Positions 3,001 to 9,000 are shown, numbered from the whole stretch's first letter. The stretch is 30,381 nucleotides of DNA, filler included, from an uncultured Methanosarcinales archaeon (GCA_964535955.1; 7 parts of 7 records of this genome joined end to end with filler, not necessarily neighbours in it), one strand, 5' to 3'. Program-made: the numbers.

Positions 3001-6000
3001 TATTTGATATTTCTATTTTTTTTAATAAAACTACAAATCCTTTCTAATGCCTCATTTGTCACATTTTGAATTTTTATAAGGATAGTATAGGTCTTAAAAT
3101 TAAGTTTTGTATTACTTATTATTAGGTTGTATCCTGAGATAAATTTTTCTTTTTCTAATTTTTTTATTCTATATGCTGCAAGTTCTCTTGAAATATGTGC
3201 TAATTTTGATAACCTTGTTTGAGAAATTCTTGCATTTTGATTTAGTATTTTAAGCAAATCTTTATCCTTTTTATCTAGTTTTTTTATTTTTCTTGGCATT
3301 ATTTTACAATAACTCTTACTTATTTATAAATTTTGTGTTAAATGTAAAAAATAGACTCTTAAATTTTATATAATACCTTTACTATCAATTATTCTATTAG
3401 AGGTGAAGAAAAGGTTACTTCGATGAATTCAAATTCATTTGTGAAAGCAATACCCCTTTTCTTATAGTCCTCTTATATTATGTTCACATAGGGGTGCGGA
3501 AGGAGTTACTTCGGTGCTAAATGGTTCGATTCCATTAACAATGGGGAAACCTGTTGTCAATAAACACTTCTTTCACCAGTCCCCTATTTTTCGTGAAAAT
3601 TACGGTTAAAAACAAAAAATCATTATAAAAAAGAATTAGTATAAAGGATATGTATATATCATAAATATATCATAAATATACAATAAACACACAATATTTA
3701 ACGAGGTGCAAAAAAATGCCATTTTTGAAATATAATAAAATATATAGAATTGATTTAGATGAAGATACAAGAAGTATTTTAGGAGAAAGTGGGTTAATTG
3801 TAACTGAAAAATTAGATGGATGTAACTTATTAATCTGGAAAGATGGTGGTAAGATTCATGTAGGTAAGAGAACTCAAGAATTGCCTATGTCAGTTAATGA
3901 TCATAAGAAAGGTATGTTTAGTGAAGTTGTAAAATGGGTAGAAAATACAAACTGGGATTTTTTACCGGAAGGGGTTATTTTATACGGGGAAGGGTTAAAA
4001 GGAAAAGAGTATGGGAAGGACAAATACAAGACAATAGGTAAGATTCAGTATGAAAGAAAAGAACCATTTGTATTGTTTGATGTGTTTGATTTTGAAAAAG
4101 ACTTTTGGTTTAGTCCTGAAAGTAAAAGATGGAAAAAGATTAGATCAGATTTTAAGAAAGCAAATGGATCTGAATTACCACAAGTACCTGTAATTGATGT
4201 AAGTTTTGAATTACACAGAATTAACGATTTAAATAAGTTGTTAGGCCCATCAGAATGGAGTGAGAATGTAAAGAAAGAAGGGGTTGTTGTTAAAAAGTAT
4301 TATCCTGATGGAAAAGTAGTGATGGTGAAGTTAGTTGATGATGAGTTCAAGGAATTTATCAAAAGAAAAGCAAAGCCTAAAGGAAGTGCATACTATGAAA
4401 TTGTTGGGTCTGTTGTGACCAAAGCAAGAGTTGAAAAAATTATGAGAAAAGAAAATGTAAAAAGTATCAAAGATTTCAGTAAATTAATCAAAGCTGTTGT
4501 TGAAGATGTTTTTGAAGAGGAAGAAAAAGAATTAAAAGAATTGGCGTGGAAAAATTTTAAAAAGAATTTAGGAAAAGTAATGCCACAAATGATCAAGAAA
4601 CACTTTGATGAGATTACAGCAGAAATAATTGAAAGAGAGGAGAAAGAAAAGATGGAAAAGATTGATAAAAAAACAGTTGGAGAAGAAAAAGTCAAAGTTG
4701 AGAATAAAGCAAGTGATAAGAATATAGTTACTAAAGGTGTTGTTCAAAAGGATCAAGTAATCTCAACTTAATCATATTCAAGGGGTGCGGAAGGAGTTAC
4801 TTCGGTACATAACCATAAAAACACTTCTTTCATTCAGTCCCCTTTTTTTAATCCCCAGAGCACAAAGATGTTTGGGGTGGAGGTAAAAAAATGAATAAAA
4901 CAATAAAAAGAATCTTTGAAGGATTCAGAACAAGAAAAATATACAGCAATGCAGACCATTGGAATAAAGAAGGTCAACTAAGTTTTAGTTTAACTGATGA
5001 AGATTTGTTTCTTCAAACACTATTAACAAATACTTGCTCAGATGTCTTTTATGCTGATAAGAATGAACTAATAGAAGATAGTGTAGAGATTCATTCCAAT
5101 ATGTTGATTAAGAATCCTAAGTTCTGTGCTCAAGCAATAGTCTATGCAAGAACTAAAGGGTTTATGAGGCTTCAACCAATACTTGGTTTAGTTTTTTTGT
5201 CTACTTTAAAGGATAAAAGGTATTTTAAATCAGCATTTCAAAGAGTAATTTTAACACCATCTGATTTAGAATCTTTTATTGATCTCTGTAGGAGTGATAT
5301 AATTAGAAAAGGTGTTGGTAGGTCTGTTAAAAAAGAAATAATTAATTATCTTAAAAATAAATTAACAGAATATCATGCAATCAAGTATAAGAATCAATTA
5401 AAAGATGCTATAAGGGTTAGTAGGCCTGCTTCAAAGGTTTTTGAAGGTGTTAAGAAAGACATTGTTGAGTTTATCATGAAAAATAAAGTTACTAGAAAAC
5501 TTGAACAAGTCAATGCAATTAGTGCTCTTAGAGATCTTAATGTTAAGAAAGATGAATCCAAGATAATAAAGCTGATTGAGAAAGGTAGACTGCCATATGA
5601 GTCTATTGTTGGCACAATTAGTCCAAGTCCAAAGATTTGGGAAGCATTACTTTACCAAATGCCTATGTTTGCAACATTAAGAAACCTAAATGTTATGGCA
5701 AGAAATAAGGTTTTTGAATCAAGCAAAGCAATAGACTATGTTTGTGAAAAGTTTAAGCATGTTGAAAAGAGTAGAATCTTGCCTTTTAGATTTCACACAG
5801 CTTTGAACAAGCTAGAATCAGATGTGCCTATGAAGATAAGAGATTGTCTTAGAGATGCACTTGAAAGAAGTTTTGTAAATTTGCCTGAGATCAAAGGCAG
5901 AACATGTATTTCACCTGATGTAAGTGGCAGTATGGGTGGAAGACCAATACAAATTGCAGCTATCTTTAGCGCAGCTTTGCTTAAGAAATGTGATGATAGT

Positions 6001-9000
6001 CTTGTTTTGCCTGTTGACACTAAATTGTATGAAAATACATGCAGTAGAAGAGATAGTATGATGACTAATGCAGAAAAAATCATGAAATTTGGTGGTGGTG
6101 GAACAGAACTTGATCTACCTATTGAGTATTTGCTTAAGAAAAAGATTAAGGTTGACAACTATATTTGTATTACTGATAGTGAAGAATGGTATAGTGAGAA
6201 CAGGTATTATGGAAGAACTGGTAGAGGATTTTACAAAGCATTGCTTAATTACAAGAAAAAAGTTAACAGAAATGTTAAGGTCTTTTTTGTGAGACTCCAA
6301 CCTTATGGAGATAGTATGGTTCCAAAACACGAACATGGTTTGTATAATATTGAAGGTTGGTCAAATACTGTGCTTGATTTTATAGCAACTATAATTAACA
6401 TTGATAAAGACCAAAAAGCAGATATTTCAAGAATTGAGGTTTAGTTTGGTTTAGTGATTGAGTTTTTTATTTGATTTTTTTATTTTTTTATTTTGTTTTG
6501 TTGTTTATTTTCAATCACAACAATATTTAAATATCATTTCTCTTGATTTTGTTTTATGTTTGTTCAGATAATATTAGCAATACTTGTAGGTTGTTTTTTT
6601 GGAATCATCACAGGCCTTACTCCTGGAATACATATTAATCTTGTTTCTATTATGCTGATTAATATGTCTGGATATTTTTTAGGATTCACATCACCAATGT
6701 CATTGGCTGTGTTTATTATTGCAATGTCTATTACACACTCTTTTTTAGATACAATTCCTGCTGTTTTTTTAGGAGCTCCTGATCCTGCAGTTGCTTTAGG
6801 TGTATTGCCTGGCCATAAGTTGCTTTTAGAAGGAAGAGGGTATGAAGCTGTAAAATTGACTGTAATTGGCAGTATGTGTTCATTGATTTTAACTTTATTT
6901 CTTATTCCATTATTAGTTCCAGCTGTTCCTTTTCTTTATGAATTTATTTCACCTTATATTGGATACCTGTTATTGTTTGTAATTATTTTTATGATTGTTA
7001 AAGATTTAAAACCAAAAAAAATTATGCTGAATATGTTCATAGTTTTATTATCTGGTGCATTAGGATTGATTGTATTGAATTTTCCCAATCTTTCTCAGCC
7101 ACTTTTTCCAATGTTGTCAGGGTTATTTGGTACAAGTGCTTTGTTAATGTCATTAAGCAACAATGTTACAGTTCCTGAACAAAAGATTACTGAAGAAATA
7201 CATGTGGATAAAGTTAAAACAGGCAAGGCATTAGGCGCTGCAACTTTTTCAGGAATCTTAACTGGATTTCTGCCTGGANNNNNNNNNNNNNNNNNNNNNN
7301 NNNNNNNNNNNNNNNNNNNNNNTTAATTAATTAANNNNNNNNNNNNNNNNNNNNNNNNNNNNNNNNNNNNNNNNNNNNCGAAACAATTTTTTCACACAAA
7401 ATAAAAACATATGATTCCACCCTTTCACGGGCTAAGCTCAAAATTTCGCAATTTATAAATCTTTGCTTTTTTGTTACTATTTGGTGATTAATTCTTTCTT
7501 TTTTCTTAATCCATTTATGTATTTTTCAAATTCTACGCATTTATTTATGTCTATCCTTGTTTTTTTCCTATTCTTAAGATCAAAAGAAAAAACCTCTAAA
7601 TCATTGTGTTTATATTTAACCTCAAAATCATCTTTCATTCTTCTAAACAATGTTTTTAGTTTCATCTATGCCCCCTAAAATATATTAACTATATACTCTG
7701 ATTTTATCATATAAAAGTATTTATATACTGGAGTATATAGGTCCGGAAGAATCACATACTTATTATAGGGTTAAATATAATAATATATAAAAACACTTGC
7801 ATCTAACCTAAAAATATGGCAAAAATAAAGGTGTTGTCTCAAGATCTTATTAATAAGATTGCTGCAGGTGAAGTGATAGAAAAACCTAGTTCTGTAGTAA
7901 AAGAATTAATTGAAAATGCACTAGACGCATATGCTGACCAAGTATTGGTTGAGATAATCGAAGGTGGTAAGTCTTACATAAAAGTGCAAGATAATGGTTT
8001 TGGCATGAATGAAAAAGATGCAATGCTTAGTTTTCATAGACATGCTACTTCTAAAATTTCTGTTACACAAGATTTGTTTGACATAAATACACTGGGTTTC
8101 AGAGGTGAAGCATTGGCTTCAATTGCTGCTGTAAGTAACGTTAAGATCACGACCAGAGTTAAAGAAAAAATTGAAGGTGTTTTTATTGAAGTGGAAAATG
8201 GAACAATAAAATATAAAGCAAGTGTTGGTTGTCCTGTTGGTACTGTAATCGAGGTTTCTAATTTATTTTATAATACTCCTGCTAGGAAAAAATATTTAGA
8301 ATCTATACAAAATGAAACAAGACACATAACAGATATTGTGATTAGATATTCTTTGATTAATCCCAAGGTTGGGTTTAAATTAATAAGCAATGGAAATATT
8401 ATTATTAATACTCCTTTTACACCTGATGTATTGGCAAATGTAGCAAGTATATATGGGGCTGATGTTGCAAAAACACTTTTACCAATTAATTATTCATCTG
8501 ATTCAATAGAAATAAAAGGGTTTATATCTAAACCTAGTTATACAAGGGCTGATAAAACACAGCAAAGTGTTTTTGTTAATAAGAGGTATGTGAAGAATAA
8601 AATTATTAGTTCTGCTATACATGATTCTTACAAAGAATTATTAATGTTGCACAGGCATCCGTTTGTTATTCTAGATATTACTATTCCTGCAAGATCAATA
8701 GATGTGAATGTGCATCCTACGAAAAAAGAGATCAGATTATCTAAAGAAGGTTTAGTCTACCAAATTGTGTTTGATGCTGTAAAAAAGACTTTGCAAGAAA
8801 ATAATTTAGTAACTGAAAGAGAGATAACTGACAAAGAATTACAGAAATCATTCCACCAAACAATAAAGCCAATAACAGAACAACAAGAAGCACTAAAAGC
8901 AAACAAAGTAGTTGAACCAATGTCACAACAAACATTGGCAAAACCAGATACACAAGTCTCAACAAGTGAACAAACACAACAACTTCCTCAAGTAAACATA

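Follow-up and report, generated by a model that had tools for sequence, protein, structure and literature searches.

Ro60 proteins bind Y RNAs on their outer surface and the ends of misfolded RNAs in their central hole. In bacteria such as Paenibacillaceae and Chloroflexota, the Y RNAs YrlA and YrlB (RF02553; PMC4201824) are encoded a few hundred nucleotides from Ro60, on the same strand and often in two or three copies, and their 5' and 3' ends pair as two helices around an internal loop. Salmonella has a compact rsr-yrlBA-rtcBA operon with a divergent RtcR regulator (PMC7790460), and the Rsr-Yrn1-PNPase system (RYPER) of Deinococcus radiodurans joins a vWA-bearing Ro60 ring to PNPase and to a Y RNA that has a terminal stem. 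Ro60-family (TROVE) proteins have also been published from archaea or their mobile elements, namely haloarchaeal tRNA clusters (PMC6333295), Borgs (PMC11208441) and Asgard Nidhogg viruses (bioRxiv 2021.07.29.454249), the last of which also encode an RNA ligase; the available portions of these sources concern the protein only and report no Y RNA. Thus, archaeal Ro60/TROVE proteins are not new. We found no archaeal Y RNAs in print, and it is the archaeal partner RNAs that are identified here, at a locus within a 30-kb stretch of DNA (the window) that resembles the bacterial systems in layout. Its sequence supports the preliminary description, which interpreted it as encoding an archaeal Ro60-Y RNA particle. 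We regard it, with a probability of about 0.8, as a Ro60-Y RNA system that a DPANN (Woesearchaeota-like) archaeon has acquired horizontally and domesticated. On this reading, the RNA quality-control system extends to the third domain of life.

The protein encoded at positions 4891-6444 of the window (plus strand, 517 amino acids) is a Ro60/Rsr ortholog by sequence and predicted fold, with a TROVE ring and a vWA domain containing a MIDAS motif. It is full-length, as first described. Pfam assigned the TROVE HEAT-repeat ring (PF05731; 43.5 bits, cut-off 23) and vWA_Ro60 (PF25045; 47 bits, cut-off 27.7), and residues 25-499 aligned with Ro60 from Xenopus (1yvp, E 5e-16) and human (9nen, E 7e-18). 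Foldseek matched the predicted model (pLDDT 85.8) over its full length to human and Xenopus Ro60 (9nfa/1yvp; TM 0.75-0.78 over ~540 columns) and to D. radiodurans Rsr (2nvo; TM 0.71). The MIDAS residues (DxSxS; D343, S345, S347) are invariant among 18 aligned Ro60 homologs. The score against the NCBIfam Rsr equivalog NF041674 (50.4 bits) is far under the cut-off of 900, which places the protein in the wider family and not among the equivalogs of the curated Rsr set. The protein shares 64-65% of its residues with two archaeal-type proteins and 35-40% with those of Paenibacillus and other bacteria, in line with the preliminary values, whereas its identity to haloarchaeal TROVE proteins is 23-27%; the closest named relatives outside DPANN are bacterial or viral. 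The reported rarity of the gene in the phylum also held, as it was present in one of 401 sampled genomes, that of the window itself.

Three putative Y RNAs lie 46-1495 nt upstream of Ro60 on the same strand, within the ~4 kb applied by Chen et al. (2014) and essentially where the preliminary description had placed three plus-strand RNA elements. Each has two 8-bp helices. Y RNA 1 (type 1; 3396-3476, plus strand) scored 26.4 bits (E 3.4e-5) with R1, a covariance model described below. It is predicted to fold (MFE -19.3 kcal/mol, z -3.0) into an outer stem, a UGA / UAUAGU internal loop, an 8-bp inner stem, GUUACUUCG and an inner hairpin, and has orthologs in two other DPANN loci (L091, 3118-3188; L002, 2635-2705). 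Y RNA 2 (type 2; 3487-3588, plus strand; 25.8 bits, E 4.9e-5) starts 10 nt past Y RNA 1, which suggests that the two probably share a transcript, and is followed by a T5 run (3587-3591). It contains a GAAA-capped hairpin and the tRNA-like T-arm (3520-3536, plus strand; AAUGG-UUCGAUU-CCAUU, with a 5-bp stem and the loop UUCGAUU) already recognized in this copy, at the position of the GGUUCGAnUCC arm of bacterial copies. Among the three window copies, only Y RNA 2 keeps the T-arm. Y RNA 3 (type 2, short; 4780-4844, plus strand; 17.8 bits, E 0.0063) matches Y RNA 2 at 100% identity in the first 26 nt and in the 3' strand (families D3 and D17), with a different interior. It follows the stop codon of an RNA ligase gene directly, precedes the Ro60 start by 46 nt and is followed by a T7 run (4843-4849). 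The position of this run directly before Ro60 bears on the gene's own transcription and was counted against our best explanation.

In archaeal and bacterial RNAs alike, the ends pair as two helices that enclose an internal loop, the motifs GAGG-YG...G-U-CUUCG are conserved and some copies have a T-arm; a single covariance model detects both. However, the archaeal copies, at 59-102 nt, are the shorter ones and lack both a D-arm and an acceptor-like stem, and the 3' side of their internal loop reads an invariant AGU before CCYC, where bacterial copies have UU(U). Inferred archaeal TATA promoters and oligo-T terminators appear to take the place of bacterial signals. With the D-arm and acceptor-like stem missing from all window copies and no tRNA match to the Y RNAs by Rfam (E<=10) or ARAGORN, tRNA mimicry is at best partial; among bacterial forms, the layout comes nearer to those that are short and YrlB-like or have only a T-arm. 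The available part of Chen et al. (2014; PMC4201824) gives a 5' motif, GNCGAA(N0-1)G, as a presumed contact with Ro60. This motif is approximate in type 1 (GGUGAAG, U for C) and has no match in type 2, which has GGUGCGGAAGG; the closest bacterial relatives, reading GAGGCGC, are likewise inexact.

R1 was trained only on 40 bacterial Ro60-adjacent RNAs, picked for the GTTACTTCG motif and closing-stem complementarity. When run with filters off over both strands of the whole window (E<=10), it returned exactly three matches, the three Y RNAs, all on the Ro60 strand. The same three and no others were found in the whole 1.49-Mb genome. None of 60 related genomes had an R1 match at E<=0.01, and none of 44 loci that happen to contain the exact 22-nt 5' pattern had one at E<=0.1. 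The scores of the window RNAs are modest (18-26 bits) and below those of bacterial copies. All 95 R1 matches lie on the Ro60 strand, and their stems covary strongly: pairing reached 95.3% of cells versus 52-58% with the partner slid (both sides change in 15 of 16 pairs), and 96.5% versus 46-64% in the 13 archaeal copies alone (13 of 16 pairs), counts somewhat inflated by the fitting of the alignments to R1. The inner helix is fully (100%) paired across the 13 archaeal copies, and all seven DPANN copies keep both helices, with 8-bp inner stems in four different compensated sequences. The three RNAs are, by these sequence criteria, homologs of RNAs flanking bacterial Ro60 genes, and the R1 homology and covarying closing stems bear out the two-stem module of bacterial Y RNAs first proposed for them.

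A repeated search agreed with the preliminary finding of no Rfam family at E<=10 for the window RNAs. Furthermore, RF02553 (YrlA; gathering threshold 69 bits) had no match in the window or genome, in contrast to the bacterial relatives. Paenibacillus copies themselves reach just 37-41 bits against this model; bacterial family members align end to end with Rfam YrlA at E 3.7e-6 and 5.4e-5, below threshold. Supplementary file 4 of Chen et al. (2014) lists YrlA beside the Ro60 genes of Paenibacillus mucilaginosus and Brevibacillus borstelensis. The sub-threshold YrlA matches of the bacterial relatives suggest that the window RNAs are reduced YrlA/YrlB-type Y RNAs.

Divergent from the RNA genes is a gene (2316-3299, minus strand, 327 amino acids) for a tandem Lrp/AsnC-type regulator with two HTH_AsnC domains (Pfam HTH_24 and HTH_AsnC-type, two stretches each, and AsnC_trans_reg). 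The regulator occupies the same place in L002 (58% identity, confirming its reported conservation at another Woesearchaeota locus) and in L091 (48%); tblastn found no homolog among the bacterial, viral and haloarchaeal loci compared. A sequence resembling an archaeal TATA box (TTTTATATAA; 3364-3373, plus strand) is centred ~28 nt before Y RNA 1. In an alignment of the three DPANN intergenic regions TTTTATAT is invariant, and the TATA centre lies 26.5-28.5 nt ahead of the first R1 match in the window, L002 and L091. The known layout of archaeal promoters suggests that this element is a promoter. No promoter was seen in the window sequence for Y RNA 2 or Y RNA 3.

Between Y RNAs 2 and 3 is the RNA-ligase-family gene of the preliminary description (3716-4771, plus strand; PF09414, 65 bits), the sole PF09414 gene of the genome. 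It encodes a predicted ATP-dependent RNA ligase of Rnl2-like layout, with an N-terminal nucleotidyltransferase and a helical C-terminal part; in Rnl2-type enzymes, nick sealing requires such a helical domain. The protein matches NgrRnl (E 4.5e-5), and its top Foldseek match is full-length T4 Rnl2 (2hvr; E 2e-8, 327 columns), with TM 0.31-0.34 for a weak model (pLDDT 62). Motif I (K32-x-D34-G35) is invariant in three sequences, as are E92, E188, G189 and K205 of motifs III-V. Like the Salmonella operon, this compact locus combines Ro60 and two Y RNAs with an RNA ligase and a divergent regulator. The Salmonella ligase is RtcB, however, which in the archaeal genome is encoded elsewhere (contig C7); RtcA, part of the Salmonella operon, is absent from the window locus, and RtcR is a sigma-54 CARF activator rather than a tandem Lrp/AsnC protein. 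The ligase is also not conserved in the other DPANN loci, as previously noted: it is present in one of three, and tblastn found none in the other loci compared, so that adjacency is what suggests a functional link with Ro60. The genome has two adjacent RNase PH genes (exosome core) where RYPER has PNPase, and these may or may not fill the PNPase role. To our knowledge, PNPase is not expected in this archaeon.

The regulator, Y RNAs, ligase and Ro60 form an island of ~4.2 kb (2298-6473) between a pseudouridine-synthase and a TctA gene. In two same-genus genomes (G802 and G804), matches to 1518-2281 and to 6474/6556-7277 of the window, at 74-84% identity, are just 91-434 nt apart without the cassette, and none of three same-genus genomes has a Ro60 match. 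The cassette's absence from this syntenic site marks it as an accessory island, and a compositionally native one (GC 0.30-0.32, as in the genome, versus 0.41-0.68 for bacterial RNA copies; tetranucleotide correlation 0.957 versus 0.948 +/- 0.046 for genome chunks). No terminal repeats turned up around it. The host, described as a tiny marine archaeon of the Woesearchaeota-like DPANN, is archaeal by the 23S rRNA end on the same 7.3-kb contig of this metagenome-assembled genome, the syntenic flanks, the native composition and the archaeal TATA boxes.

The cassette of divergent regulator, TATA box, Y RNAs and Ro60 recurs in two other DPANN loci, and all three loci with upstream sequence have two or three Y RNA copies each. 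The regulator-RNA-Ro60 arrangement is likewise present on a 69-kb Woesearchaeota contig. R1 recovered the RNA module, in the two copies originally reported, from another Woesearchaeota genome; the module also stood in Paenibacillus mendelii, though with three R1 matches instead of two, and the ANME-1 locus said to carry it was not recovered in our scans. With filters off, R1 placed the module ahead of the TROVE gene in all 25 haloarchaeal loci that were tested, which indicates that DPANN is not the sole archaeal lineage with it. The patchy distribution, the tree and the lack of the cassette at the congeners' empty site are all consistent with horizontal acquisition, as the preliminary description proposed. 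It named bacteria as the source; the tree, being unrooted, allows either a bacterium or a virus as donor.

The elements could instead be cis-acting leader parts of the ligase and Ro60 mRNAs (processing signals or autoregulatory Ro60 sites) and not free small RNAs. Their location upstream of coding genes on the same strand, the lack of a visible promoter for Y RNAs 2 and 3 and the tight fit of Y RNA 3 between the ligase stop and the Ro60 start would suit such a role. We consider it unlikely, given that T5 and T7 runs follow Y RNAs 2 and 3, as expected of archaeal termination, and that in three loci a TATA box is suitably spaced from Y RNA 1. Bacterial homologs also include free YrlA RNAs detected experimentally, according to the available part of Chen et al. 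(2014; PMC4201824), and neither a viral contig with arrays of up to 10 copies nor a locus (L093) with copies downstream of Ro60 suits a leader role.

A reading in which the elements have no present function, either as tRNA-derived pseudogenes or as leftovers of the transfer in decay, is very improbable. The seven DPANN copies retain their helices and compensated inner stems, and since identity among the DPANN Ro60 proteins is just 64-66%, these stems have been kept over a long divergence. Y RNAs 2 and 3 share identical stem strands despite different interiors, and neither the Ro60 nor the ligase frame is broken, with their MIDAS and catalytic residues conserved. In favour of decay are the loss of the D-arm and acceptor-like stem, the R1 scores under those of bacterial copies and a related Ro60 gene (G002) with in-frame stops in its 5' part. 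Least probable of all is a mis-binned or chimeric contig whose Ro60 cassette belongs to a bacterium or virus in the sample. The contig is short, the nearest named protein relatives outside DPANN are bacterial or viral, and the Logan unitigs, the only independent support, are short and low-depth, many with loose ends. Yet unitigs from four runs in two studies tile the junctions without differences (e.g., 2847-3454 and 3449-3961), the contig bears the archaeal 23S end, its GC and tetranucleotides are genome-like, both flanks are adjacent in same-genus genomes, and the 69-kb Woesearchaeota contig has the same cassette.

In a domesticated Ro60-Y RNA system, the TATA promoter, shared with the divergent Lrp/AsnC gene, would drive a transcript of Y RNAs 1 and 2 ending at the T5 run, and Y RNA 3, after the ligase gene, would end at the T7 run. 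The 5' and 3' ends of each RNA would form two helices split by the conserved internal loop, followed by GUUACUUCG. This two-helix module, common to bacterial YrlA/YrlB-type Y RNAs, is the presumed docking site for the Ro60 ring, and the variable inner part (hairpin or T-arm) would attract other factors or keep them away. With the neighbouring ligase, putatively of nick-sealing type, the particle would deal with structured RNA that is damaged or misfolded. The RNase PH pair is a possible effector, and RtcB is another repair enzyme present in the genome.

More tentatively, archaea may have their own Ro60-Y RNA particles that move as small cassettes, a possible but rather doubtful reading at present. 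The DPANN unit would consist of the regulator, two reduced Y RNAs and Ro60, here with a captured Rnl2-like ligase, and its haloarchaeal equivalent would lie within tRNA-gene islands. Where a cell lacks PNPase, the Y RNA could tether Ro60 to the exosome or ligase to make an RNA repair and decay machine switched on by the Lrp-type sensor; the ligase might also take the Y RNAs as its substrates and, for instance, seal their paired ends together.

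The contig with the Ro60 gene (window 1–7278) belongs to a 1.49-Mb genome of 31 contigs that is 100% complete with 1.8% contamination. It opens with the 3′ end (947 nt) of an archaeal 23S rRNA gene (838 bits), followed by a small ORF, a pseudouridine synthase gene (S4 plus RluA-type, 1446–2297) and, on the minus strand, a tandem Lrp/AsnC regulator (2316–3299). The plus strand then carries the candidate Y RNAs 1 (3396–3476) and 2 (3487–3588), an RNA ligase gene (PF09414, 3716–4771), Y RNA 3 (4780–4844), the Ro60 gene (4891–6444) and a TctA transporter gene broken off by the contig end. 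A search of the other contigs in the window, between the N runs, with the RNA covariance model described below (R1) returned nothing related to this cassette.

The preliminary description of the 517-aa protein as a full-length Ro60/Rsr ortholog agrees with its TROVE and vWA_Ro60 domains, its near end-to-end alignment with Xenopus and human Ro60 (E 5e-16 and 7e-18) and its predicted fold. The best PDB matches of the structural model (pLDDT 85.8) are to solved structures of Ro60 (TM 0.75–0.78, ~540 columns), followed by Deinococcus radiodurans Rsr (TM 0.71) and a Thermus phage Ro60. The MIDAS residues D343, S345 and S347 are invariant among 18 aligned homologs. The protein scores 50 bits against the narrow NCBI Rsr equivalog model, below its cut-off of 900 bits. 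A metagenome scan for relatives gave two matches; no locus for one relative, P0004 (45% identical), was found in the genome contigs searched, and the ANME-1 locus named previously is absent from the best 80 of 129 relatives. In a related genome, the 5′ part of a Ro60 gene (L041; G002:C74:3–341) has two TGA codons and one TAA codon in frame, which means that the gene is broken or the assembly faulty.

All three window RNAs contain the 9-mer GTTACTTCG, which lies on the Ro60 strand, mostly 100–700 nt upstream of the gene, in 64 of 81 Ro60 loci (the window's own contig counted). The bacterial copies begin with a stem extension of four variable nucleotides, then have GAGG and CGC, an inner stem that covaries, GUUACUUCG and a variable middle; after it come the partner strand of the inner stem, a loop rich in U, CCUC and again the stem extension. 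Long bacterial forms hold T, acceptor-like and D arms within the variable middle and match the whole Rfam YrlA model at 41 and 37 bits (E 3.7e-6 and 5.4e-5), below the gathering score. A published supplement records YrlA beside the Ro60 genes of Paenibacillus mucilaginosus and Brevibacillus borstelensis (Chen et al., 2014; PMC4201824). The match of the long forms to YrlA, together with this record, identifies the family as the known YrlA/YrlB family. As described previously, the window RNAs themselves have no Rfam family at the gathering score or at E ≤ 10, and RF02553 has no match anywhere in the genome.

The covariance model R1 was built from bacterial RNAs adjacent to Ro60 genes. A script delimited 160 elements, of which 73 (60–116 nt, with the 3′ signature) were kept; these were reduced to 42 at <80% identity, and two mis-delimited elements were dropped by eye, leaving 40 aligned seeds, none of them archaeal, with 16 base pairs given by hand. 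R1 matches 3396–3476, 3487–3588 and 4780–4844 and no other place in the window or genome, which bears out the three RNA elements claimed upstream of Ro60. None of 60 related genomes has a match at E ≤ 0.01. A scan with the 22-nt 5′ motif of the type-2 RNAs (a type described below) returned 45 loci, one on another Woesearchaeota contig (L002) and 44 chance matches; R1 found nothing at E ≤ 0.1 in any of the 44, so the motif alone does not trigger the model.

The 95 R1 matches from 32 sources all lie on the Ro60 strand. Pairing figures lean high because the alignments were fitted to R1 and the seeds picked for stem complementarity: 95.3% of cells pair in the 95 matches, versus 52–58% with the partner slid by 1–3 columns, and both partners vary in 15 of 16 pairs; the 13 archaeal copies give 96.5% versus 46–64% and 13 of 16 pairs, with the inner helix 100% paired. 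The slid controls and the wide range of pair types nonetheless speak for genuine helices.

Two types of RNA occur at the three DPANN loci, which are the window, L002 and a metagenome contig (L091). Type 1 (window 3396–3476, L091 3118–3188, L002 2635–2705) carries GAGGUG(A/G)AG(A/G)AAAGG, and type 2 (window 3487–3588 and 4780–4844, L091 3195–3253, L002 2785–2871) carries G(A/G)GGUGC. The inner stem has 8 bp in all seven copies and occurs in four compensated versions. AGUCC is likewise invariant on the 3′ side, where bacterial YrlA/YrlB-type RNAs have UUUCCUC. The T-arm described previously is present, with a canonical 7-nt T-loop, in Y RNA 2 and also in the type-2 copy of L002; none of the seven copies has a D-arm. 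The stem strands of Y RNAs 2 and 3 are 100% identical over 26 nt and 14 nt but enclose different interiors, which suggests that the two were recently duplicated or evolve in concert around the ligase gene.

Across the three DPANN loci, per-column identity is 81% in the intergenic stretch that separates the regulator gene from Y RNA 1. This stretch contains TTTTATAT (window 3364–3371, L002 2605–2612, L091 3088–3095), centred 26.5–28.5 nt before the start of the R1 match, which is the usual spacing between an archaeal TATA box and the start site. This element is a putative archaeal TATA box and would serve as a promoter. Y RNAs 1 and 2 are separated by 10 nt; a T5 run follows Y RNA 2 and a T7 run follows Y RNA 3, both typical archaeal termination signals. 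A scan for sigma-70 promoters and intrinsic terminators gave eight promoter-like sites versus 8.0 expected and no terminators, a result that carries no information in an archaeon.

The divergent intergenic region has another conserved element, GTAAAAAATA(G/A)A (window 3340–3359, aligned in L002 and L091), possibly the regulator's own promoter or operator. A small hairpin (CCCC/GGGG or CCUC/GAGG) directly precedes the Ro60 ribosome-binding site (window 4853–4880, L002 2971–2990, L091 3258–3272), and its 3′ arm together with that site reads G(G/A)GGUGGAG, like the Y RNA 5′ strand. The hairpin could be an autoregulatory site; with four pairs and one compensatory change in three sequences, it was too weak to be claimed as an element.

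The RNA-ligase-family gene reported between the Y-like RNAs is there, and the genome has no second PF09414 gene. The protein has the complete set of nucleotidyltransferase motifs and a sequence match to NgrRnl. Its fold matches T4 Rnl2 best, followed by NgrRnl and archaeal Rnl3-type enzymes, although these matches come from a low-confidence model. Two homologs are detectable in a large protein collection, and there is no PHROG match. Its reported lack of conservation at the other Woesearchaeota locus extends to the remaining Ro60 loci compared, in which tblastn found no homolog. The genome encodes RtcB and, side by side, two RNase PH proteins at other places. The window locus resembles the rsr-yrlBA-rtcBA operon in layout but not in components.

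In two same-genus genomes, the flanks of the cassette are adjacent. Matches to window 1518–2260 and 6556–7277 are separated by 91 nt in one of them (G802), and those to 1593–2281 and 6474–7277 by 434 nt in another (G804), where the gap holds an unrelated 128-aa ORF. No Ro60 match was found in three same-genus genomes (71, 94 and 91% complete), and the only Ro60 among 401 sampled genomes of the phylum is the window's own, in line with the absence noted previously. Neither direct nor inverted terminal repeats were found at the island ends, nor was an integrase. Cassette composition is native to the genome (GC 0.30–0.32; tetranucleotide r 0.957 versus 0.948 ± 0.046 for same-size genome chunks). 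Unitigs from four marine/seawater DNA runs in two studies cover the junctions at a depth of 3–6 with no differences. In the 23S rRNA gene, the contigs in all four DNA runs skip 41 nt at 492–537, probably because they come from related organisms without a small insertion.

The regulator–RNA–Ro60 unit recurs with different flanks on the 69-kb contig L002 and on L091. Conservation of the regulator at the other Woesearchaeota locus had been proposed, and the L002 protein is indeed 58% identical to the window's; that of L091 is 48% identical. No regulator homologs were detected by tblastn in the bacterial, viral and haloarchaeal loci compared. Near Ro60, L002 (4710–5324) and L091 (111–722) have on the minus strand a Pol-beta-type nucleotidyltransferase gene that is not in the window.

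A quick maximum-likelihood Ro60 tree was computed from 50 of 96 rows, after omission of 46, picked ahead of tree building, that were mostly near-duplicate Paenibacillaceae. The window protein groups with those of L002, L041 and L091 and with the relative P0001 in a clade with a support of 100, to which P0004 is sister (99). This archaeal clade falls on the Chloroflexota/viral-contig side of the split from Bacillota (support 99) in a tree that is midpoint-rooted and has no settled branching order near the clade. The RNA 5′ sequences agree with the protein, since archaeal and Chloroflexota RNAs share GAGGUGC or GAGGUAC and Bacillota RNAs have GAGGCGC. The preliminary description proposed acquisition from bacteria. 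The tree supports well a transfer of Ro60 into archaea, but its midpoint rooting and unsettled branching do not support the choice of a donor.

Annotated Ro60-family genes also occur on haloarchaeal plasmids and in 353 phage records, two of which bear the organism name Halogranum. In three of three haloarchaeal plasmid loci, two R1 copies immediately precede the TROVE gene in the same orientation, flanked by tRNA-Glu and tRNA-Arg genes. With filters off, R1 was run on 22 loci from a further haloarchaeal set of 48 (L177, L178 and the first 21 apart from the 1.4-kb L176) and gave 44 matches at E ≤ 0.1, all on the plus strand and upstream of the gene, with at least one in each of the 22. Default filters across all 48 yielded nine matches in nine loci at E ≤ 0.01, with scores near the threshold. 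These matches are candidate Y RNAs in cultured archaea. The available text of a 2019 study of archaeal tRNA gene clusters (PMC6333295) gives a TROVE gene in 20 of 29 and reports no Y RNA.

The haloarchaeal TROVE genes are 76–100% identical across many genera and often sit on plasmids inside tRNA gene clusters. Pairs of R1 matches (~148 and 78 nt) occur on the TROVE strand at L143 4519–4756, L144 2923–3158, L145 2969–3203 and, in L156–L178, upstream of 1501. In L144, from Natrinema versiforme BOL5-4, the two lie at 2923–3070 and 3081–3158; Natribaculum, Haloarcula and Halorubrum strains have the module as well. The tRNA clusters are echoed in several bacterial loci (L017, L028, L060, L020 and L080), where true tRNA genes, up to six in a row, lie just upstream of Y RNA arrays; in one Anaerolineae MAG, a tRNA-Sec match has the same position. 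Two viral contigs carry tandem arrays, with ten Y-RNA-like units upstream of Ro60 on the 224-kb L095 (1307–2915) and four downstream of it on L093 (4502–4861).

Ro60 and its Y RNAs are known from work on animals and bacteria. The literature searched, which covers subscription journals thinly, yielded no account of an archaeal Y RNA, and this is not proof of absence; in the parts of earlier papers available, archaea figure only as carriers of unannotated TROVE proteins. Our analysis confirms the earlier observation and supports its reading as a Ro60–Y RNA locus. We interpret the locus as a reduced YrlA/YrlB–Ro60 system in an archaeon, carried as a mobile cassette with putative archaeal control elements, and we infer the function, expression and Ro60–RNA binding of the window cassette. 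The partner RNAs are Y RNA candidates in the third domain of life. At 59–81 nt, such a very small natural Y RNA, which keeps the putative Ro60-binding module alone, would help define Ro60 recognition. The locus also offers a test case for a particle without PNPase, in which an ATP-dependent ligase would replace RtcB. Because the module adjoins a TROVE gene in many cultured haloarchaea, the question can go to the bench.
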